From: Torpedo marmorata
Taxonomy: Eukaryota
Direction of reading: 5' to 3'
Assembly (NCBI GenBank): GCA_977017645.1
Contig: OZ360236.1
Location: 26,908,001 to 26,972,000 of the forward strand
Length of the DNA stretch: 64,000 nucleotides
Part shown: positions 2,722 through 27,200 of the stretch, in pieces
Position numbering within the stretch: the first letter of the stretch is position 1
Layout of the letters: each line of letters begins with the position of its first letter
Made by a program: the position numbers and the translations under genes
Notes under the pieces: generated by a model
What the model saw: only the letters and a program-made list of their open reading frames with translations
What the model was told of the DNA's origin: nothing
The model's database searches: none

Positions 2722-5700
2722 ATTTAATTTTTAAAATCACAAAATACATATATCAAAAAAAATAGTATATTATTGAAAATACATGTGATATATTTACCAC
2801 CCCCCCTTCCCACCCTCCCCTCCCCAACCCTCCCACGCTATCTAATAAAAAGAGAAAATAGAGTATAAAAATGTTAATTAAAAGGAAAGAAAAAGATTGA
2901 ATAATAAAGTTAAGAAAGTTAGTGTTAGTATGAGGAGAAAAACTATTTCAAGCTAACTCTACTTGTATATTGGAGGTTACTTTGTCAGCGGTACTAACTT
3001 CTAGAGAATTAATTCATACCCATAATTCTCATGTATGGGCTCCAAATTTTCAGAAAGAAATGATATTTATCTCGTAAATTATACGTAATTTTTTCCAATG
3101 GTATACACGAGCGTAACTCTGCATGTAGTCTATCCAAATTTAAATCTAAATCTGATTTCCAAGTAATAGCAATACATTTTTTTGAAATTGCTAACACAAT
3201 TCTTAAAAATTCTATTTGGTACATATTCAATCTATTTCTAATACTAATTTTTTTAATATCTCCAAACAGAAATATCATAGGGTCCATTGGAATCGTAATA
3301 TTAAGAATTCTATCTAGAAATTCCTTAACTTTAGACCAAAAATTTTTAATTTTCAAACACAACCATGTACAATGTACAAAAGAACCTATTTCATCTTTAC
3401 ATCTAAAACACGTATCTGACAATGCCGAATTGAATTTTTTTAATTTTTTAGGTGTTATATATAATTGATGAAAAAAATTATATTGTACTAATCTATATCT
3501 AACATTAATAATCTTAGTCATACTCAGTTTACATAGTTCTTTCCAGTGTTGTTCATCTATACTAGTGTTTAGATCTAATTCCCAATTTAATCTAGATTTA
3601 TGTAGTCCTACTTTAAACATTTTTTTCTGAAGTAATTTATACATTTGCGATATAAATTTGTTAACATTTCCATTAGTAATTAATAACTCTAACCCATCTT
3701 GTCTAGGGGATATTAATTGATTCCCTAATTTCTCAACTAAAAATCCTTTAACTTGATAATAAGCCAAAACTGTATTATCCATTATTCCAAATTTTTCTTT
3801 CAATCTAGAAAAAGTAACAAATCTTCCTGCCTCAAAACAATCTTTAATCTTCTTAATTCCTTTTTGATACCATAATTTTAAAAATTGATTATCAATAGAA
3901 AATGGTAATAATAAATTCTGATATAATGGCATATTTAAAGAAATTGATCCTTTTCGTCCTATTTCATTATCTAATTGATTCCAAATTTCCAATAGATGTT
4001 TAATAATCGGTGACTTTTTCTTTTTAATCAATAATAATTTAGAATTCCATTTATAAATAATATCTTCCTTATTTCTTTCTCCTATATTACTCAATTCTAT
4101 ATTAATCCAAGCCGTATTTTTAGTTAAATCAAATAGTTCATTTATAAATTTTAATTGTGCTGCCTTATAATAATATTGAAAATTAGGGAGTTGTAATCCA
4201 CCCATTTCGTATTCCCAAGTTAATTTATCCATACTTACTCTTGCCAATTTTCCTTTCCATAAAAACTTTCTAATAATAACTTTTAAATCTTTAAAAAATT
4301 TTTGAGGAATACCAAAAGGTATAGATTGAAAAAGATATTGAACTTTTGGAAAAATATTCATTTTAATACAATTCACTCTTCCCATTAAAGTTATGGGTAA
4401 ATCTTTCCAATTATCCAAATCCTTCTTTATTTTCTGAAATAAAGGTATGTAATTTAATTTATATAAATTTTCTAACTTTGTATCCACTTTAACTCCCAAA
4501 TATTTAATAGCTTCTTTAGTCCATTTAAATTTTGTAACTTCTTTACATTTAGTATAGTCTCCTTGAGATAAAGCCATTATCTCACTTTTATCCGAATTAA
4601 TTTTATATCCAGATATTTCACCATAATCCCTCAATATTTTATCTAATTGTTGAAGTGATTTAATAGACTTTGTCATATATATTAATACATCATCTGCAAA
4701 CAAACTAATTTTATGCTCTTCTACACCTACTTTTATCCCATTTATATTAATATCTTTCCTAATCATTTCCGCCAACGGTTCTATTGCCAATACAAATAAA
4801 GCAGGTGACAATGGACATCCTTGTCTTGTTGACCGCGTCAAAGAGAATTTAGATGATATTTGACCATTTGTAATTACTCTGGCTGTAGGTTCCTTATATA
4901 TAGTCTTAATCCAGTTTATAAACGTATTTCCAAATCCATATTTCTCTAAAACCTTAAATAAAAACTTCCATTCTACTCTATCAAATGCTTTTTCTGCATC
5001 TAATGCTATCACTAACGGCAAATCCTGTTTCTTTTTTTGTAAATTAATCAAACTTATTAATCTTGCTATATTATCCGTTGAATATCTATTTTTAATAAAT
5101 CCTGCTTGATCTGGATGTATTAAAAATGGTAAAAACTTAGCTAGTCTATTTGTCAAGATTTTTGCCATTAATTTATAATCTACATTTAACAATGATATAG
5201 GCCTATACGATTCTGTTTTTAATACATCTCTATCTTTCTTTGGTATAACTGTAATAATAGCATTTAAAAATGTTTTCGGTAATGAATGAGTTTCCTTTAT
5301 TTGAGTTAATACTTCCATATATATAGGTATCAATACATCTTTAAACTTCTTATAAAACTCTGCCGGAAATCCATCATCACCGGGAGATTTACCACTATTC
5401 AATGATGATAAAGCCTCACCTACTTCTCTCATTGTAATTGGTAAATCTAACAAATCTCTATTAAAACTATTTAATTTGGGCAATGTAATTTTAGCTAAAA
5501 AATCATCAATTTTTACAACATCTTGATTCATTTGCGAAGTATATAAATTTTGATAATACTCTTTAAATGAATTATTTATTTCTTGAGGTTTATAAGTTAT
5601 TTCTCCAGAACTTTTCTTTATAGCATTTATAGTTTTAGAAACTTGTTCTTTCTTTAATTGCCATGCTAAAACTTTATGTGCTCTTTCTCCCAATTCATAA

Positions 5701-6234
5701 TATCTTTGCTTTGTTCTACCAATTAATTTTTCTATTTTTCGAGTTTGTAATATATTATAATGTAATTTTTTCCCAATTAAACGTTGTCTCTTAGAAATTG
5801 TTTTATTTCTTTGAAAATCCTTTTCCATAACTTCAATTTCTCCCTCCAGTTTTTCTTCTTCTTTCACATAATCTTTTCTAATTTTTGCCGAGAAGCTTAT
5901 TATCAATCCTCTTAAATATGCTTTTAAAGATTCCCAAATTATAAACTTATCTTCAACTGAATTATTATTAATTCTTAAAAATTCCTGAATTTCTTTTCTT
6001 ATATATTCACAAAAATCTTTTCTATTTAATAAAGAAGAGTCTAATCTCCAGTTATATACAGTTTTTTCTTTCTCTGGAATTATACATGTCATTAATAAAG
6101 GTGAATGGTCCGAAATTATTCTTGCTTTATAAGAAATTTGAGTTATTCTATCTTGAATTTGTGAAGATATTAAGAATAAATCAATCCTTGAGAATGAATT
6201 ATGTCGAAATGAATAAAATGAATAATCTTTTTCT
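2689..6234 (-). mobile_element. Young 5'-truncated L1-clade LINE
   Basis: Poly(A) tail seen as T-run at 2689-2713; perfect 14-bp TSD CTTTTGATAGATTA at 2675-2688 and 6235-6248; uninterrupted ORF2. Confidence 0.95.
3009..6234 (-). CDS. L1 ORF2 (C-terminal end of APE endonuclease, RT, Cys-rich C-terminus), 5'-truncated
   Basis: The 1027-aa ORF extends upstream without stops through endonuclease motifs YSF...SRIDLFL...SDHSP; RT motifs SYRPISLLN, LDAEKAFDR, QGCPLSP, FADD; C-terminal CxxC...H...C. Confidence 0.9.
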
Positions 6235-8836
6235 CTTTTGATAGATTAGAGTGGAATTTTTTATTTAAGGTATTGGAGAAATTTGGTTTTGGAAGTACAT
6301 TTATTAATTGGATTAAAATTATATATAAAGAATCATCTGCTAAAGTAGTTACAAATGGACAAATTTCTTCAACATTTCCTTTGACTCGATCTACTAGACA
6401 AGGATGTCCTTTGTCACCAGCATTATTTATTTTGGCAATAGAACCTTTGGCAGAATTAGTTAGAAAAGATCCTAAAATAGTTGGTATTAAAGTTGGAATG
6501 GAAGAACATAAAATTAGTTTATTTGCAGATGATGTATTGATATATATGACAAAATCTACTACATCTTTAGTACAATTGTCTGTGTTATTGAGAGAATATG
6601 GGGAAATATCTGGATATAAAATTAATTCTGATAAAAGTGAAATTATGGCATTATCACAAGGGGATTATAGTAGATGTAAAGAAATTACACAATTTAAATG
6701 GGCAAAGGAAGGAATTAAATATTTGGGAATAAGGGTTGACACAAAATTGGCTAATTTATATAAATTAAATTATTTACCATTATTTGTGAAAATAAAGAAA
6801 GATTTAGAAAATTGGAAAGATTTACCTATAACTTTAATGGGAAGAGTAAATTGTATTAAAATGAATGTTTTTCCAAGAATTTAATATCTTTTTCAATCAA
6901 TTCCTCAAAAATATTTTAAAGATTTAAATTCAATTATTAGAATTTTTTTATGGAAAGGAAAGTTAGCAAGAGTAGGTATGGAAAAACTAACTTGGAATTA
7001 TGAAATGGGTGGTTTACAACTTCCTAATTTCCAAAATTATTATAAAGCAGCTCAATTAAAATTTGTTAATGAATTTTTTGATTCAACTAAATCTTCTGCT
7101 TGGATTAAAATAGAATTAAATAATATAGGAGAAGATTCCAAAGAAGAAGTTATTTATAAATGGGATTCTAAATTAATATTAACAAGAAAGAAAAATTCTC
7201 CTATTCTTAAACATTTGTTAGAAATATGGAATAAGACGGATAAGGAAATAGGAGGAAAAGGATTGATTTCTTCAAGGATGCCTTTATATCAAAATGGACT
7301 TATTCCATTTACTATTAATAATAAATTATTTAAAATTTGGTTTCAAAAAGGAATTAAGAAAATAAATGATTGTTTTGAAGCTGGGAAATTTATTACTTTT
7401 CAAAAATGAAAGATAAATTTAATATATTAGATAATACACTTTTTGCTTATTATCAAATTAGAGCTTTTCTGATTGAGAAATTAGGTTATGCTTTGATTTT
7501 ACCAAGACAGAATGAATTAGAATTATTAGTTACTAAAGGAGATGTCAATAAATTTATTTCTCAAATGTATAAATTGTTTCAGAGGAAAATTCCTAAAGTA
7601 GGAATTCATAAATCAAGATTAAAATGGGAATTAGATTTGAATGTAATAATAGATGAAAATCATTGGAAAGAATTATGTAAATTAAGTATGACGAAGATTA
7701 TTAATGTTAGATATAGATTAGTACAATACAATTTTTTTCATCAATTATATTTAACACCTAAAAAACTAAAGAAATTTAATCCAACATTATCAGGTTTATG
7801 TTTTAGATGAAATAAAGAGGAAGGTTCTTTTGTACATTCTACATGGTTTTGTCCAAAAGTTTATGATTTTTTGGTTCATAGTTAAAAATTTTTTAGATAA
7901 AGTATTTAAGATTACATTTCCAATGGATCCTATGATATTTTTGTTCGGAGATATTAGAAAATTTAGTATTAAGATGAAATTAAACATATATCAAATAGAA
8001 TTTTTGCGAATTGCTTTAGCTGTTTCAAAGAAATGTATTGCTATTACTTGGAAATCTGATTTAGATTTAGGATTAGAAAGATGGCATGCAGAACTTCGTT
8101 CGTGTATACCACTTGAAAAAATTACTTCTAATTTACGTAACAAATATCATTTTTTCTTAAAAATTTGGAGCCCATATATGAAAGTTGTTGGTTTAAGGAT
8201 TTGAAGATCTCTGGGTATCGGATCTACTGGCATACCTGACCTCCATAATAGAATTAGTTTATAGATGTATGTTTTTTTTTTAGATTGGCATTCTCCTTAC
8301 TCTATCTTTTTCTTTTTTTTTCTTCTTTTTCTATTTTTATTTTATATTTTTATTTTTATTAGATTAGTGGGGTTGGGAGGGTTCGGGAGGGGAGGGAGGG
8401 AGGGGGGGTGAAAATGTATCACAAATATTTTGATAATTTCATATTTTATTTTATGTATTTTGTGATATAAAAATTTTAAATAAAATATTTTTTTTTAAAA
8501 AGGGGGTGAATGATGGAAAGAGAGGAGTGGATGAGGGAGTCAAGGAGGGAACAGGCCCTGCAGAAGGCTAGAAGGGAGAAGAGGGCAAAATATATTGATG
8601 ATGGGATCATGTTGCAGGTGGCGGAAATTACGGAGGATAATATGTTGGATGCGGAGGCAGGTGGGGTGGTAGGTAAGGACAAGGAGAATCCTGTCCTTGT
8701 TGCATCTGGGGCAGAGGGGGCCAGTGCAGGTGTGTGGGAAATGGAGGAGATGCGGGTGAGGATCGAGTTGATGGTAGTAGAGGGGAAGCCACTTTTTTTG
8801 AAGAAGGAGGACATCTCGGATGATCTCGCATGGAAG

Positions 8837-9157: not shown

Positions 9158-9925
9158 CATGGAAGACCTTGTCCTGGGAGCAGATGTGATGGAGACAGAG
9201 GAATTGAGAGAAAGGAATAGAATTTTTACAGGGGACAGAGTGTGAAGAGGTGTAGTCGAGGTAAATGTGGGGGTTGGTGGGTTTGTAGAAGATGTCTGTG
9301 GAGAGTTTGTCTCCCGAGATGGAGACAGAGAGATCGCGAAAAGGGACAGCGTTGCTAGAGATGGGGACCAAGTGAATTTGAGGTCGGGGTGGAAGTTGGC
9401 AGCAAAGTGGATAAAGTTTACGAGTTCATCCTGGGTGCATGAGGCAGCACAAATATAGTCGTCAATGAAGCGGAGGAAGATTTGAGGAGCTTTGCCCATG
9501 TAGGCTTGTAGCATAGATCGCTCCACATATATTTATAAATATATTTATTTATGATATTTATCTATAGATTAGCAGATATGTAATTTAAGAAAATGACTGC
9601 TAATTGACATAGATGATCATTGATTAGTGCAACCAATCATAAAAAGACTACACCAAAATATAAACATGTGTTAATGCCCATATTACCATCGTCTGCAACT
9701 TTGACAGTGTGAGTACAATCAAATTACAATGAGAAATTTCTCATTACCTGAAAATAATAATTTTTGAAACCAAAAATTGTAATTTACACAGAATAATTAT
9801 GGAAGCAGGGAACAAGGTAATTACATTCTCAAATCCAATTAACAGTACAGTAACACCACTTTATATCATTTGATATTTATGCGAGCCAGCATGATGGAAT
9901 TCTCGGGTAAATGTCCATTCAGGAT

Positions 9926-12140
9926 AAATATGGATTTGGAAATACGTTTATAAATTGGATTAAAACTATATATAAGGAACCTACAGCTAAAGTAATTACA
10001 AATGGTCAAATATCATCTAAATTTTCTTTGACACGGTCAACAAGACAAGGATGTCCATTGTCACCTGCCTTATTTGTATTGGCAATAGAACCGTTGGCGG
10101 AAATGATCAGGAAAGATATGAATATAAAAGGGATAAAAGTAGGTGCAGAAGAGCATAAAATTAGTTTGTTTGCAGATGATGTATTAATATATATGACAAA
10201 GTCTATTGAATCACTTCAACAATTAGATAAAATATTGAGGGATTATGGTGAAATATCTGGATATAAAATAAATTCGGATAAAAGTGAGATAATGGCTTTA
10301 TCCCAAGGAGATTATACTAAATGTAAAGAAGTTACAAAATTTAAATGGGCTAAAGAAGCTATTAAATATTTAGGAGTTAAAGTGGATACAAAGTTAGAAA
10401 ATTTATATAAATTAAATTACATACCTTTATTTCAGAAAATAAAGAAGGATTTGGATAATTGGAAAGATTTACCTATAACTTTAATAGGAAGAGTGAACTG
10501 TATTAAAATGAATATTTTTCCAAGAGTTCAATATCTTTTTCAATCTATACCTTTTGGTATTCCCCAAAAATTTTTTAAAGATTTAAAAAGTATTATTAGA
10601 AAGTTTTTATGGAAAGGAAAACTGGCAAGAGTAAGTATGGATAAATTAACTTGGGAATATGAAATGGGTGGATTACAACTTCCTAATTTTCAATATTATT
10701 ATAAGGCAGCACAATTAAAATTTATAAATGAATTATTTGATTTAACTAAAAACACGGCATGGATTAATATAGAATTAAGTAATATAGGAGAAAGAAATAA
10801 GGAAGATATTATTTATAAATGGAATTCTAAATTATTATTGATTAATAAGAAAAAGTCACCGATTATTAGACATTTATTAGAGATTTGGAATCAATTAGAT
10901 AATGAAATAGGGCGAAAAGGATCAATTTCTTTAAATATGCCATTATATCAGAATTTATTATTACCATTTTCTATGGATAATCAATTTTTAAAATTATGGT
11001 ATCAAAAAGGAATTAAGAAGATTAAAGATTGTTTTGAGGCAGGAAGATTTGTAACTTTTTCCAGATTGAAAGAAAAATTTGGAATAATGGATAATACAAT
11101 TTTGGCTTATTATCAAGTTAAAGGATTTTTAGTTGAGAAATTAGGGAATCAATTAATATCTCCTAGACAGGATGGGTTAGAGTTACTAATTACTAATGGA
11201 AATGTTAATAAATTTATATCGCAAATGTATAAATTATTTCAGAAAAAGATACCTAAAGTAGGATTGCATAAATCTAGATTAAATTGGGAATCAGATCTAA
11301 ATACTAATATAGATGAACAACACTGGAAAGAATTGTGTAAATTGAGTATGACTAAGATTATTAATGTTAGATATAGATTAGTACAGTATAATTTTTTTCA
11401 TCAATTATATATAACACCCAATAAATTAAAGAAATTCAATCCGGCATTGTCAGATATGTGTTTTAGATGTAAAGATGAAATAGGTTCCTTTGTACATTGT
11501 ACATGGTCATGTTCGAAAATTAAAAATTTTTGGTCTAAAGTCAAAGATTTTTTAGATAGAATTTTTAATATTATGATTCCAATGGATCCTATGATATTTT
11601 TATTTGGAGATATAAAAAAAATGAGTATTAGAAATAGATTAAATATGTACCAAATAGAATTTTTACGAATCGTATTAGCTATTTCAAAAAAATGTATTGC
11701 TATTACTTGGAAATCAGATTTAGATTTGAATTTAGATAGATTACATGCAGAGTTACGTTCTTGTATACCACTGGAAAAAATTACGTATAATTTGCGAGAC
11801 AAATATCATTTCTTTTTGAAAATTTGGAGCCCATATATGAGAATTATGGGTATGAATTAATTCTCTAAAAGTTAGTACCGCTGACAAAAGTATCCTCCAT
11901 ATATAAATAGAGTTAGTCTGAAATAGTTTTCTCCTCATACTAACTCTCTTAACTTTATTTCTCATTCTATTTCTTTCCTTTTAACTAACATTTCTATATA
12001 TTCTTTTTTTTTTTCTCTTTATTAGAATAGTGTGGGAGGGCTGGGGAGGGGAGGGAGGGAAGGGGGGTTGGTAAAAATATCACATGTATTTTGATAATAT
12101 ATTATTTTGAATATGTATTTTGTGATTTTAAAAATTAAAT

Positions 12141-15049: not shown

Positions 15050-16320
15050 TAAACGAATGTAGCCCAGAAACAGGAACTTCAGCCCAACTCATCCAAGCCA
15101 GCTGTTGCCTCCCTAAGTTTGTCCCATTTGCCTACGTTTGGCCCATATACTGTACCTCTCGACCTTTCCTATCCATGCACCTGTCCAAATGTCTGATAAA
15201 CATTGCAATTGTAAGTGCTTGTACACTTTCTTCTAGGAACTCATTACACACACCCAACAGCCTCTTTGTGGAAAAAAGATGCCCCATGGGACCCTGATAA
15301 ATCTTTCCCCTCTCCCCTTAAATCTATACCTTCTGGTTTTAGACTCCCCTTCCCTGGGAATAAGATTGTGACCATTCACCTTATGTATACCCCTCACAGT
15401 TTTATATACCTAAGGCCTCATTCTCCTACGCTCCAGAGAAAATGTCATAGTCTCCCTTTATTACTCAAGCTGTCCAGTTAGTAACATCCTTGTGAATATT
15501 TTCTGCATCCTTTCCAGCTTAATGATATCCTTCCTGTAGCTAAATGACTAGAACTGCACGCAATATTTCAAGTGCACTCTCACCAAAGACTTGTTCACAT
15601 GTAACATGATATCCAACTCTTGTACTTAATGCCCTGAACTGATGAAGGCAAGCATGCCAAATACCATCTGCATTGCCATTTTCAGGGAACTATGCACTTG
15701 CATCCCGAGGTTTCTCTTTTTTACAACATGCTCTCCAAAGCCCTGTCCTGTTTAACTTCCCAAATGTGACATCTTGCACTAGTTCAAGTTAAATTCTGTC
15801 TGCCATTCCTTGACCCACTTTTACAGTTGATTGATATCCTTTTCTAATCTTGGGTAACCTTCTTCACTGTTCATTGTATCACCAATTTTGGGGTCATTTT
15901 CAAACTTGTTACCCAAGCCAACTATGTTCTTATCCAAACTGTTGATATCAATGATAAACAACAGTGGACCCAGCCCTGATCCCTGCAGCACACCACCGGT
16001 CACAGATATCCAATCTGAAAATTAAGCCCCCACTACCATCTTCTGTGTCCCACCACCAAGCCAATATTGTATTAAATTGGCCCCCTCACCCTGGACCCCC
16101 TGCAATCTGACCAGCCTACCAACAGGAACTTTGTCAAAGGCCTTGCTAAAGTCCAGATAGATAACATCTATCATCTTTTCTTGTAAATCCTTTTGTCACC
16201 TCTTCCAAAAACTCAGTAAAATTCCTGAGCACACTTTCCCATGCACCAAGCCATGGTGAATATCTCTAGTCTATCCTTCCTTTTCCAAAAGCAGGCAGTT
16301 CCAATCTCAGTATTCCCTCT
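15050..16320 (-). mobile_element. CR1-clade LINE, degraded 3' part; target of the hAT element
   Basis: RT remnant TGGVLQGSGLGPLLFII (ORF 15821-16003), ALARPLTKF/KAFDKV region near 16130-16150, and CR1-like 3'UTR near 15050-15200. Confidence 0.75.
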
Positions 16321-16996
16321 CAGTGGCATATCTAGGTCAAATAGCGCCTGTGGCAAGCACTGAAATTGCGCCCCCCCTGTTAAAAAAGCGCAAGTAAAGT
16401 TGCCAGTTGGGCGATTTCCACACACAATTGGGCATAGTTTCTTTTTATGTCAGCCAAAACTGCTAAAAGGAATAAAATGCCCTTTTATGAGAAGCGTACA
16501 CTTCCCTGAACAACGCTGCCATTCCGTTTATCTGCTTGCCACTATAGTGCAGGCAATTGCCATGGAGTTTTTTTTTTACAGCTTGTAGTCTATATTACTT
16601 GTCCATCGCTTCAATTAGGAGCAAAAAAGAAAGGGCTTTGTAATGCAATTGTCTTGCTAAGGAGAGTGACTTAAATTGGGAGATTATGTGAGCTGGACCA
16701 CCTGTAGGGCATTCATGGGGATTTCTATATGTCCGAGCCTCTGCCTTACTGCTTGCAGTCTGATGAACAATACAGAAAAAGCTGTTTAAAAGACTGTTCT
16801 ATGTTTCCTTCATGCTCACTAACTGTTACAATTCGTATCCCCGTTTAAACGAGTTAAGTCTCAAAACGGCCCTTTTAATTAATTTTCAGGCAGCATGTTG
16901 GCCAGTGGTCTTGCAAACCAAGGGAGGGAGGGAGGGAGGGAGGGAGCGGGGTGGGGGGAGAGAGGGAGAGAGGGAGAGGGAGGGGGAGAGAGAATG

Positions 16997-17132
16997 NNNN
17001 NNNNNNNNNNNNNNNNNNNNNNNNNNNNNNNNNNNNNNNNNNNNNNNNNNNNNNNNNNNNNNNNNNNNNNNNNNNNNNNNNNNNNNNNNNNNNNNNNNNN
17101 NNNNNNNNNNNNNNNNNNNNNNNNNNNNNNNN
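16997..17132. other. Assembly gap (N run) next to a GA-rich microsatellite
   Basis: 136 consecutive N. Confidence 1.
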
Positions 17133-17481
17133 ATTCGATTCAAAAGGCTCAATCCCACAGATTAACCCCATTGAATTGGCCCTCGCTTAAGAAATTACGT
17201 ACTCAGCTATTGGGCAGCCAGGTAAAAAGTTTAACAATTACCAAAACAGTTTTTCTCCTAAACCAACATCCCTCGACATGCTGCCCGCAAGTAAAACGTA
17301 TAGGATTCCCGCAGAAATGAGAGCCCCGAGAGTGTTCGCAAATGTGATCAAATCAAAAGTTGTTTTATTGTCAAAATAGAATAATTGCTTCAAATATTTG
17401 TTGCTCTGGCTGAGGCAACCACTAAACTTTTTTAATACAAAAATTTACATACCCTGTATATACTTCAAAAACACATTTGTT

Positions 17482-18770
17482 GTTAAGAAGATAGAAGATT
17501 GTTATGAAGGGGGTCAATTGATGTCGTTTGTACAGCTAAGAAACAAATATGGAATACCGAATAATACTATTTTTTGTTATTTTCAATTAAGAGGATATTT
17601 AAGGGAAAAATTAGGTTCGGATATGCTGTTACAAAATTGTAGCGAAGTGGAAACTCTTATTAGGAAAGGAAATACTAGAAAATTTACTTCTATAATATAC
17701 TCCTTGTTACAAAGGGGAGCCTTAAAACAAGGACTTCACAAATCTAGACAGAGATGGAAACAAGATCTTAATGTAACAATTGATGATAAAAGATGGTCGG
17801 ATTTATGTCAAGATAGCATGACCAATACTGTTAATGTAAGATATAGATTAATATAAGATATAAGATACAGTATAACGTTTTACACCAATTATACCTTACA
17901 CCACAAAAATGGAATAAAATAAAATCGGCATTATCAAACAAGTGTTTTAGATGTGGTGAAGTAGAGAGAACTTTTTTACATTCAACCTGGTTATGCTCCA
18001 AGGTAAAATTCTTTTGGATGGAATTAGGGAATTTGTTAAAACAAATTACAGGTGTTACATTTCCACAAAACCCTGATTTATTCTTATTAGGGAATGTGGA
18101 AGGAACTAGACCAAAATTGAAGTTATCAGCATATCAATTGAAATTTGTAAAAATCTCTTTAGCGGTAGCAAGGAAGTGTATAGCTGTAACTTGGAAATCA
18201 GATACAAGTTTAGGCATGGATAGATGGAATACAGAGATGCAGAGTTATATTTCATTGGAAAAAATAACATATAATATGAGAAATAAATATGGGGTATTTT
18301 TGCAAATTTGGCGTCCATATATCCAATCATTAGGTATGAATATGTAAATGTGTTACTCCACATCCTAGACCCTGCTGACTCTCTCAAATTTAAATAATAA
18401 AAATACTGATGAAAACCCTGCGTCGAGCTGTGGACACCCGGGCGATCCGTACAGATGTTTCTAATAAGCAATATTATATTACTTTCTTTTTTTCCTTCTT
18501 TCTTTTTAGCTTTTAGGAAGGGGAGGGAATTTAAGGGGAGGGAAAGGGTGGAGGGTGGGATTAGAAATATTAAATATTAAGTAATAATATTAATTTGAAA
18601 TGTTTGAAAATGTTATAAGGGTTTGGGGGGTTAAGGGAAGGGGTAGATACACTATATAATACAAATATAATTTAAAAAGATTTTTCTGAAATTAACAATG
18701 TATATTATTCATGTTTGTATTACTGTGTGAAAATTTAAAATTTAAAATAAAATATTAAAAAAAACCCCAA
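17482..18770 (+). mobile_element. 5'-truncated L1-clade LINE, divergent subfamily, inserted in the captured fzd8 3'UTR
   Basis: ORF2 C-terminal remnants (NVRYRLI; KCIAVTWKSD...LEKITYN), G-rich 3'UTR, A-rich tail, 15-bp TSD AAAAACACATTTGTT at 17467-17481 and 18771-18785. Confidence 0.9.
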
Positions 18771-19248
18771 AAAAACACATTTGTTATGTACACAATTTAC
18801 AAGTTGTGTTCATAGTACAAATAATTAGATAAATATAATTTTTGCAAGAACCCCGTATAACATGGGATATTTAAAAAATCACGATTTTAAGACCGGTTGA
18901 TGAACCCATGCCATTTTTGTCCCTCTGTTTTAAGTTACTTTAAGTTTAGCAGATGCCAGCAATTAAGAGGAGAAAACACACTCCCGATAGGTTTAAAAAG
19001 TTCCTGTTCTTGTGAACAACGCAATCTCTCTTCCTCCCACATTCAACATCTGGTGACTGTCCTGAGCATTTAAAAATTGTTTTAAGATTTAGAAGTATTA
19101 GTGCCAGGTACATTGCTCTGGTCAGTCCTTCACTTCTGACTAATGGATACCATTAGAAGTTCATTAACATGTTAATAAAGATGCTGGTCGCGTATCTTCG
19201 GTTTGGTTGCGGGGGGGGGGGGTGGGTGTTGAAAGTCTGGTCGATATG

Positions 19249-19551
19249 TCAGACTTGGGATAACGGCACTTGCCTCGGGTAAGACATGGAGCTGGCCGTG
19301 CCTGATCTCCAGGACAAGCTGTACATGGAGCCGCCTGTCCCCTTGCTGCTCCAGCAACAGCGCGTGCAGAAGGCCCTCCACAACTCCAGCATTTTGCCTG
19401 ACTCGATCCAGACTCCGGAGGTGATGCCCACCAGTAGACACATAAAGTACTTGAGCATGAAGATGGCGTAGTCCGACTTCCTGAGCACCGCCTCTCCGCC
19501 TGGCTTCTCCCTGGGAGAGTGGCAGTTGTGACTCAGCTCCCAGCTTGGACG
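19249..19551 (-). pseudogene. fzd8: Frizzled-8-like C-terminal fragment (extracellular loop 3, TM7, cytoplasmic tail) inside the hAT element
   Basis: Translates as RPSWELSHNC...DYAIFMLKYFMCLLVGITSGVWIESGKMLELWRAFCTRCCWSSKGTGGSMYS-LSWRSGTASSMSYPRQVPLSQV*, matching the FZD8 C-terminus (WRSGTASSVSYPKQMPLSQV). No CRD or TM1-6; KTxxxW is mutated; a short in-frame deletion lies after SMYS. Confidence 0.9.
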
Positions 19552-20685
19552 GCCGAAGTCATTCGAAGGGCCCCTGCAGTACGTGCGGCTGGAGGTGGCC
19601 AGGACTGGGAGAACTGCTCAGTGGCGCCCCCCTTCAAGTGGCGCCCAGGGCACACGCCATAGCTGCCATACCCTAGATATGCCTATGTTCCCTCTATCTC
19701 CATCTATAGCCCCCCAAGTTCCAGCTCTTCTATGCTCAACCAAGTTGGTTCTAAATATAGTGCGGGTTTCTTCCTCCATTTCTTTTTCACACTCTGTTTC
19801 AGGCCTCTAAATGCTACCGGAGTGAAACAACTCCTCCCTCAACTAATTCTAGCATTTAATTCAGATCTATGCTCCCTGGTTACTGCCCTCTCTGTTGAAG
19901 GATATCAATTATTTCTGTTTAAGCAGCTCATAATTTTACACATCGATTTACTCTTCCTTTTCAATTCAAAATAAGGAATTTCATCTTATCCAGTTTCTCT
20001 TTATAACCAATACACAGACATGCTGGAGGAACTCAGCCAGTCTTGCAGCGTCCATAGGAGGTAAAGATATATTACCAACGTTTCGGGCCTGAACCATTCC
20101 TCAAGGTATGAGCAAAAAAAGAGATAGGTATCTGAGTTAAAGGCTGGGGAAAAAAAGGGGAAGAATGGGAGGGGGAGGAGTACAGACAAAAGGTGTTAAC
20201 TGGATATGATAAGAGGACAGGAGAGAGGATAGGTGAGTTGATTTTGGTTCTGTGAAAGGAGAGAGGGAAAAGGGGAGAGAGAGAGAGAGAGAGAGAGACA
20301 GAGCTGGAGGAAAGGAGACATGGGAAAAGATGGTGGGGGTAGATTTCTAATGGAAACCAGAGAAGACAATGTTAATGCCATCCAGTTGGAGGGTGCCCAG
20401 ATGGAATATGAGGTGTTGTTCCTCCAATTTGCAGGTGGTCTCAGTCTGGCAATGCATGAGACCATGAACAGACATGTTAGCAAGGGTATGGGACAGGGAA
20501 TTGAAATGGATGGCCAGTGGGAGATCCACACTATTGTGGCGGACAAAGCTGAGGTGCTGAACGAAGCGATATCCCAGTCTGTGTCCAATCTCTCCGATAT
20601 AGAGGAGACCACACTAGGAGCACTGGATGCAGTGGATGACCTTTGCAGATTCACATGTGAACTGTTGCCAACGGGGCCAAGGTAA

Positions 20686-25874: not shown

Positions 25875-27200
25875 TTAGAACCCTTCAAAATCACTTTCGC
25901 TATCATCGTCTGAGGCAAAGATCTCAGCAAGCACATCCGGGGTCTCACTGTTTAAACAGTCATCGTACGGGTCCCAGTCTGTATCTGATGAGGCGGCTTC
26001 AGCTTCGTCGTCAGTGTCCCACAATAAATCATCTTCCGTACCATCAATTGCACAAGAGATACCGCACTTTTTAAACGATTTTATTACAGTCTCTACTTTC
26101 ACTTTGTCCCATGCCTTGAGCACTAAGTCACACAGCATATCAAGTGATGCAGCACGCATTGCCCCGCCTTTTATAAATGATTTTTCTGCACTCGTCATCC
26201 ATGTATTCCACTCTTCACGCACATGGTCTTTGAATTCCTTGTTCAAGCAGACATCGAGAGGTTGCAATATAGACGTCAAACCACCCGGGATAACCGCCAT
26301 GTAATTATTATGTTGCGCTAATCTACTTTTAGTGTTCTCAGTTAAGTGGCTACGAAACATATCCCAGACCAGCAAACTCCATTCCTTGCGTAAACCGCCT
26401 GGCCGCCTGTTCCACACATTGTCTCTCCATAGTTTTACACCGTTTCCATCCATCCATCCTTTTTCATGAAAATGTACAAAAGTACCCGCAGGGAATTTTA
26501 TTTTAGGTTTAAATTTATGTTTGAAGATTACCATGTGTCTTAACTTTGTCCCGTCGGCCATGCACGATAACACCACGGTAAACCTGGTCTTTTCATGGCC
26601 TGTACTCCTGGTTTGCACGGTTTTCACACCTTTCCATTCCACTGTTCTATTGCCTATCATGTCAAAATTCATAGAGGTTTCGTCCATGTTTCGAATATTT
26701 GCCAATGCAAACTTGTGTTTCTGCCGATTACATAAAATAAACTGGTGAAAACTTATAACTTTATGATCAAGATCTTTTGGTAGTTTCTGAGCAATTTTTG
26801 TTTTTTGTCGTAATACCAGATTTTTCCTGTTCATGAAACGGTTGCACCAGCCGACTGTCGCTTCAAAATCATTACTGAGTTCTGGGTGCGAATTTGCCCA
26901 CTTCAGTGCAAATGTTCTTATTTTATTTCGGGTGACAATGTAGCAATCTTGCCTCTGTTCACGTACCCATGCTGCGACATGATTTTCCAACTCTGGCCAA
27001 CGAGTGATTCCTCTTCTCATCGAACATTGCCTTTTTGGTATTTTTCATAAAGTATCTTCTTTCTTCCTCCAATCTCTTACCAACTTCTCATATATATCAA
27101 ATTTTCTTGCAGCAGCACAGTTGTTGGTTTTCTTGGCCATTTCTATTACTTACAATTTTAAACTCACCTCATACTTTCGTCGTTTCAATTAAGCCTCCAT
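25875..27200 (-). pseudogene. pogo transposase (Brinker-like HTH, CENP-B HTH, DDE_1), three nonsense codons in the N-terminus
   Basis: 381-aa open part (25875-27020) has GWCNRFMNR, NMDET, WDMFRSH and QPLD with 35 residues between the last two Asp; the in-frame upstream part reads MEA*LKRRKYEVSFKL*VIEMAKKTNNCAAARKF...VRDWRK...TL*. Confidence 0.88.

Follow-up and report, generated by a model that had tools for sequence, protein, structure and literature searches.

The shuffling of gene fragments by Pack-type transposons is common in plants and rarely reported in vertebrates. In its available passages, the survey of 100 animal reference genomes by Tan et al. 2021 (PMC8277862) gives 370 Pack-TIRs, named after the terminal inverted repeats (TIRs) of their carriers, with a median cargo of 224 bp and none in the elephant shark; only four cases are multicopy (in frog and alligator, with examples of 3 and 5 copies), and the multicopy cases lean to high GC. 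Plant Pack-TYPE families, according to the part available of Gisby and Catoni 2022 (PMC8903248), are multi-locus and grow by fusion of neighbours. Here we describe an element at positions 16321-19687 of a 64,000-nt stretch (the window, whose coordinates are used throughout) of Torpedo marmorata contig OZ360236.1, which carries 1.7 kb of the end of the frizzled-8 gene, fzd8. At least 34 copies of this DNA transposon, which lacks a transposase and is likely of the hAT superfamily, are scattered over the genome, and the window contains one of them. With a probability of roughly 0.82, the fzd8 DNA was captured once, likely by a template switch during repair, the element multiplied in a burst using transposase from elsewhere, and its copies are now decaying neutrally.

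Helitrons are rolling-circle transposons without TIRs and without 8-bp target-site duplications (TSDs), unlike the carrier of the fzd8 DNA, which is a TIR element. The gene-capturing Helitrons of vespertilionid bats, in the passages available of PMC4224331, are nonetheless comparable in the lineage-specific amplification of vertebrate host gene fragments by a DNA transposon. Pack-hAT-N8_XT of Xenopus tropicalis shares with our element non-autonomous hAT-type ends, host DNA, an unlinked parent and distinct TSDs, and animal Pack-TIRs of this type also share short microhomology and GC-rich donors, as far as the accessible text of PMC8277862 describes them. Compared with the animal Pack-TIRs of that text, the fzd8 system stands out: it occupies at least 34 loci, its cargo measures 1.7 kb and includes a coding exon, the donor loci number at least five, and cargo is found under three end types. 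Drosophila Ssk-FB4, described in the same available pages, is likewise host gene sequence that a non-autonomous TIR element multiplied by transposing repeatedly, but consists of nearly a whole gene, expressed and selected, in four copies, whereas the fzd8 cargo is a promoterless, near-neutral 3' fragment. With plant Pack-MULE, Pack-CACTA and Pack-hAT elements (PMC8903248, same part) the system has in common shared ends with differing gene fragments, multi-locus cargo and fusion; it differs in its vertebrate host and in its donors, which are developmental and neural genes in CpG-rich blocks. The element fits the Pack-TIR definition, and in scale and modularity it is like the plant case. No published report of it was found by a search that had Repbase/Dfam, most subscription papers and bioRxiv supplements outside its reach; the passages available of PMC5753468 and bioRxiv 10.1101/2025.06.08.657570 contained nothing relevant.

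The cargo is host-derived. An earlier note, made from the sequence of the window, had read about 100 FZD8 codons and their stop on the minus strand, and this fragment indeed matches positions 254-322 of the Pfam Frizzled profile (E=1.7e-11). Searching the 6.2-Gb genome with that profile (53 of 53 candidates scored) returned nine matches to frizzled over its full or nearly full length, besides more than 30 fragments confined to profile positions ~252-322. The donor is the single fzd8 locus of T. marmorata itself, a single-exon open reading frame (ORF) of 587 aa located at G000:C5:59.245 Mb; it shares 95% identity with Hemitrygon akajei frizzled-8a and 91% with Amblyraja frizzled-8. Full copies are colinear with it over 1,735 contiguous bases, at 91-94% BLAST identity. 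Measured on the parent, the cargo starts 105 codons ahead of the fzd8 stop and continues past an AATAAA situated 601 nt after the stop; the continuation had been expected, although its length is 815 nt rather than about 1 kb. Non-transposon host sequence is thus bordered on both sides by TIR-transposon sequence, and has an identifiable parent unlinked to the transposon. Two other frizzled matches (G000:C25:227.48 Mb and C30:50.14 Mb; L038 and L039) extend only to profile position 281; another piece lies 3.5-7 kb away, presumably past either an intron or an interrupting insertion.

The spread of the fzd8 3' untranslated region (UTR) and flank around the genome, raised in the earlier note as a possibility, was confirmed. 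A query with cargo alone produced 41 candidates, the best 40 of which, once scored, yielded 32 copy loci and the parent; two more partial loci raise the count to at least 34 copies (at least 33 besides that of the window) on 19 contigs. A figure of 925 candidates was rejected as a copy number, since that query held 68 bp of backbone. Uninterrupted copies measure ~1.95-2.03 kb. The window element is bounded by a perfect 8-bp TSD, as claimed, and by inverted repeats that are present at both termini but match at 14 of 16 positions and are therefore not perfect, as opposed to the matched repeats first reported. Other copies end at exactly the bases that correspond to its boundaries, 19687 and 16321. 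The same junctions are found with TSDs in 18 of 19 two-ended copies, matching at 8/8 positions in 14 copies and at 7/8 in four, all different from each other; among mismatched pairings used as a control, 1 of 342 reaches 7. Because they recur to the base and because TSDs exceed the controls, these boundaries are not due to chance.

The window contains a single stretch of N, and the contiguity of its two sides had been a concern. Ten of the 12 full copies tested bridge the gap with 74-137 nt of unique sequence and CT-microsatellite (the window has 217 nt between the corresponding anchors), and each side of the gap is colinear with the parent; this worry is therefore removed for the family. Three copies (C25c-e) are near-identical, share flanks and represent segmental duplicates of one insertion. 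As an explanation for the family at large, segmental duplication or assembly artefact has a vanishingly small probability and is refuted for all copies except C25c-e, the others, on 19 contigs, having flanks unrelated to one another, TSDs of their own and a private divergence of 2-4.5%. Insertion sites were also compared across species, with a bridging threshold of 31 nt into the element. In one other genome a contig from the right flank reaches 25 nt into the TIR, below this threshold, and in another a contig of 1,367 nt tracks the flank as far as 19689 before diverging for ~1,000 letters, which would be compatible with an empty site. One possibly-RNA run covered only transposon-end sequence and has no bearing on expression.

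The history of the family can be read from the differences between copies and parent. The commonest letter of the copies differs from the parent at 31 columns, and 24 clear substitutions are common across copies. For the 32 copies with more than 500 aligned bases, mean divergence is 4.6% from the parent and 3.2% from the column majority (2.5% outside CpG, 11.7% at CpG). A tree of 30 copies and the parent, from which four short copies were left out, is star-like, with mean terminal and internal branches of 0.026 and 0.0026, respectively; it singles out no founder, at whose orthologous site in outgroups the FoSTeST origin model of Tan et al. 2021 expects no cargo-free element. Sharing of the diagnostic substitutions by the copies shows a single capture and, together with the star-like tree, one that was followed by a burst of repeated transposition, for which hAT transposase would have been supplied in trans.

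The decay that followed was near-neutral. In the coding piece, with two segmental duplicates dropped, there are 132 synonymous, 221 nonsynonymous and 13 stop changes, for 117, 223 and 15 expected from the non-coding cargo, and selection on the fzd8 codons was not detected (ratio 0.87, p=0.22). More than half of the copies with coding cover (16/31) have a stop or a frameshifting deletion, insertions not being scored. The copies are thus likely decaying without function. It is rather unlikely that some of them, having the same origin, now act as portable poly(A) signals, as fzd8 microRNA decoys or as a source of a short TM7-plus-tail peptide. The intact AATAAA of 28 of 30 copies would fit such roles, but at 3% divergence most copies would be expected to retain the hexamer anyway; a 127-codon stop-free frame is kept in many copies and the codon ratio is slightly below 1, but indistinguishable from neutral. 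In addition, the fzd8 family is devoid of the promoter-like backbone part kept by sister families, and the window copy is surrounded by repeats, where the ORFs of 120 aa or more give no sign of a host gene.

The capture itself likely occurred by a template switch during DNA repair, from the backbone at base ~135 onto fzd8 DNA. This internal base is where the backbone breaks off at the 5' junction, with 2 bp of microhomology, and the 3' junction abuts an ~80-bp filler. Neither a poly(A) tail nor a separate TSD around the fzd8 piece was seen in the junction sequences, whose anatomy therefore differs from that of a processed pseudogene, with a poly(A) tail and its own TSD at the cargo ends; the same two features had been named as marks of a retrocopy lying within a miniature inverted-repeat transposable element (MITE). 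Transposition of an existing MITE, after a 5'-truncated fzd8 retrocopy had entered it or recombined with it, would agree with the truncation in coding sequence, the single-exon parent, the abundance of long interspersed nuclear elements (LINEs) in the window and the further AATAAA sites downstream. We consider it very improbable, as the cargo takes the place of most of the backbone rather than inserting into it, and as the sister families carry, in the case of znf608, an exon-intron junction and, in that of plexin, sequence lying upstream of a coding exon.

Since nesting is common among the related families described below, the main rival for the origin is a composite capture, in which two neighbouring insertions flanking the fzd8 end on a lost allele would have moved jointly, following a tandem-insertion model from plants. 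Such a tandem route is described in the available part of Gisby and Catoni (PMC8903248). Fusion and nesting do occur here: two fzd8 copies on different contigs (C2a and C5b) have been re-wrapped in a third end type, each with its own 8-bp TSD, and 23 of the 26 backbone loci read continue beyond an internal 3' end into 8 bases that are identical or almost so. However, none of five transposon-end motifs searched was found within 30 kb of parental fzd8, the backbone at the 5' junction is cut at base ~135 instead of ending in a TIR, and an insertion within the fzd8 coding sequence would be required. We regard a composite capture as distinctly unlikely, and retain a template switch followed by a burst as the preferred account.

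Several observations weigh against this account. One two-ended copy of the 19, C42, has no TSD, and one or both ends are missing or out of view at 15 of the 34 loci. A 2-bp microhomology often arises by chance, and no parent for the 80-bp filler was found among the loci examined, which makes the 3' junction uninformative. Further AATAAA sites lie in the parent locus 303 and 574 nt beyond the cargo 3' breakpoint; with fzd8 being intronless, a long-UTR RNA template is conceivable. The earlier proposal of capture at the DNA level is supported by the lack of poly(A) and by a cargo reaching past AATAAA; the sister cargo znf608 keeps its exon-intron junction. Finally, no autonomous element with the same ends was present in the 30 flanks read (150 scored of 2,133 PF05699 candidates).

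Assignment to hAT is made on anatomy, namely the 8-bp TSD and the short TIRs, as that search yielded no transposase bearing these ends. The genome contains many hAT remnants, as seen from the number of PF05699 candidates, and two of these loci (L152 and L159) have ends related, but not identical, to those of the fzd8 element. At least 13 similar-scoring hAT-domain matches lie within ~4 Mb (G000:C47:95.4-99.7 Mb; L137-L162), which suggests a large tandem or segmental array.

Table 1. Features of the fzd8-carrying element and its target site in the window.
Feature	Positions	Strand	Remarks
Left 8-bp TSD TTCCCTCT	16313-16320		Window sequence
Transposon 3' end, ~54 bp including TIR	16321-16374	-	Common to sister families A, B, C, G, H, Z
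Remnant of ~80-bp filler	16375-16426	-	Present only in fzd8-carrying families F and G; short stretch including the true cargo 3' junction deleted in this copy
Captured fzd8 DNA beyond AATAAA	16427-17348	-	Includes GA/CT microsatellite 16921-16996 and N stretch 16997-17132
Distal fzd8 3'UTR with AATAAA at 17364-17369	17349-17466	-	Parent alignment
Later 5'-truncated L1-like insertion (17482-18770) with 15-bp TSD	17467-18785	+	Absent from other aligned copies; TSD at 17467-17481 and 18771-18785
Proximal fzd8 3'UTR	18786-19248	-	Parent alignment
Captured fzd8 coding end	19249-19552	-	100 codons and stop (TGA 19249-19251); 105 codons in parent; 15-bp in-frame deletion here
Backbone module	19553-19618	-	Common to families A, B, C, Z and to E (different TIR)
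Transposon 5' end, ~69 bp including TIR	19619-19687	-	Common to sister families
Right 8-bp TSD TTCCCTCT	19688-19695		Window sequence

The features listed in Table 1 agree with the earlier note on the AATAAA lacking a poly(A) tail and on the splitting of the UTR by an insertion with its own TSD, which we take to be a fragment of L1 from the C-terminal motif of its ORF2. Elsewhere in the window, the CpG-rich segment 51940-55971 (minus strand) contains long open frames of 649 and 693 aa, presumably gag-pol-like and resembling those of a young gypsy-type long terminal repeat retrotransposon. Segments 3009-6245, 9911-11860 and 25875-27044 contain frames of 1,078, 649 and 389 aa; we assume the first two to be L1-like ORF2 and the third a pogo/Tigger-like transposase.

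A query with the 5' 135 bp of the element gave 2,715 candidates, of which the best 40 were scored. All sister families have in common only the outermost ~69 and ~54 bp of the two ends, and a cargo-free backbone of 771 bp has a perfect TSD (L298). Family A (18 loci, 24 of 24 candidates scored) has a cargo of 1.2 kb, whose source lies ~4 kb upstream of a plexin-A4-like coding exon. The 1.45-kb cargo of family B (16 loci, best 40 of 47 candidates scored) begins ~375 nt past the stop of a gjd2/connexin-36-like gene. Family C comprises four copies and an end-free parent (5 of 5 candidates), at which none of 47 ORFs scanned for a gene rose above the Pfam cut-off. Families Z and E contain two pieces of znf608, the second consisting of an exon end and an intron start; an exon-like piece in L077 was considered as a transposase exon and rejected, being znf608. 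The znf608-piece query returned 1,072 candidates, a number that may include some drawn in through shared modules; the best 40 were scored and all are near full length. Among the 20 znf608 loci read, one has fzd8-family ends and 19 belong to family E, which has a different TIR and its own 8-bp TSDs. Family E (L126:938-2615, L111-L129) is a 1.7-kb element with 15-bp TIRs and a long internal palindrome, and possibly has hundreds of copies. Family G (157 candidates in its query) is derived, retains no more of the fzd8 flank than its last ~380 bp and has the F-type letter at four diagnostic columns in all 18 loci read. TSDs of 8 bp occur likewise in families A, B, C, G and E.

Cargo is common to several end types: fzd8 and znf608 are each found under more than one, cargo spans three overall, and about half of the 26 backbone loci start with E-type sequence. 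Modules may have been swapped by nested insertion or recombination. The re-wrapped fzd8 copies are located at L186:625-2649 and L201:581-9441. End-free parents were observed for family A (L213:1492-2701), family B (L240:1067-2515) and family C (L133:1501 onward), the last being a CpG-rich locus that contains a minisatellite and shares a contig with fzd8, 6.4 Mb away. Among the loci examined, no parents were found for the middle modules of family G or for most of the family B tail. Same-ended elements with other internal modules are present at L274:1533-2794, L277:583-3817 and L268-L269 (G000:C40 ~52.735-52.737 Mb), and one same-ended copy without gjd2 DNA lies ~6 kb from the gjd2 donor.

The ratio of observed to expected CpG in 4 kb around the five donors is 0.81, 0.94, 0.82, 0.90 and 0.71, for a background median of 0.44, with 5 of 51 tiles from 17 arbitrary places at 0.71 or above. 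With n=5 and this small background, the values are suggestive of a donor bias toward CpG-rich blocks, in which open unmethylated DNA might be the favoured donor. The backbone also has a GC-rich part (L097 element bases ~140-560), lost from the fzd8 family, with what we take to be CCAAT-, YY1- and ETS-like motifs; it may be an older captured promoter. With some reservation, we favour a plant-style network of non-autonomous hAT-type Pack families in rays that repeatedly samples CpG-rich developmental and neural genes (fzd8, znf608, plexin-A4-like and gjd2), swaps cargo between TIRs and has been amplified tens to perhaps hundreds of times, some copies being possible UTR, poly(A) or enhancer modules.

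Dozens of ~95%-identical fragments of fzd8, gjd2 and znf608 can mislead gene annotation, qPCR, in situ probes and read mapping in these rays. The published view, as given in the available part of one 100-genome survey, holds that Pack-TIRs of animals almost invariably are small, occur as single copies and arise without transposition. The T. marmorata families reveal another regime in a vertebrate, in which kilobase pieces of developmental genes from several donors are multiplied by transposition and passed between carriers. With donor, empty backbone, derived families and copies all in one assembly, they therefore constitute a natural test bed for models of capture and for a preference for unmethylated donors.

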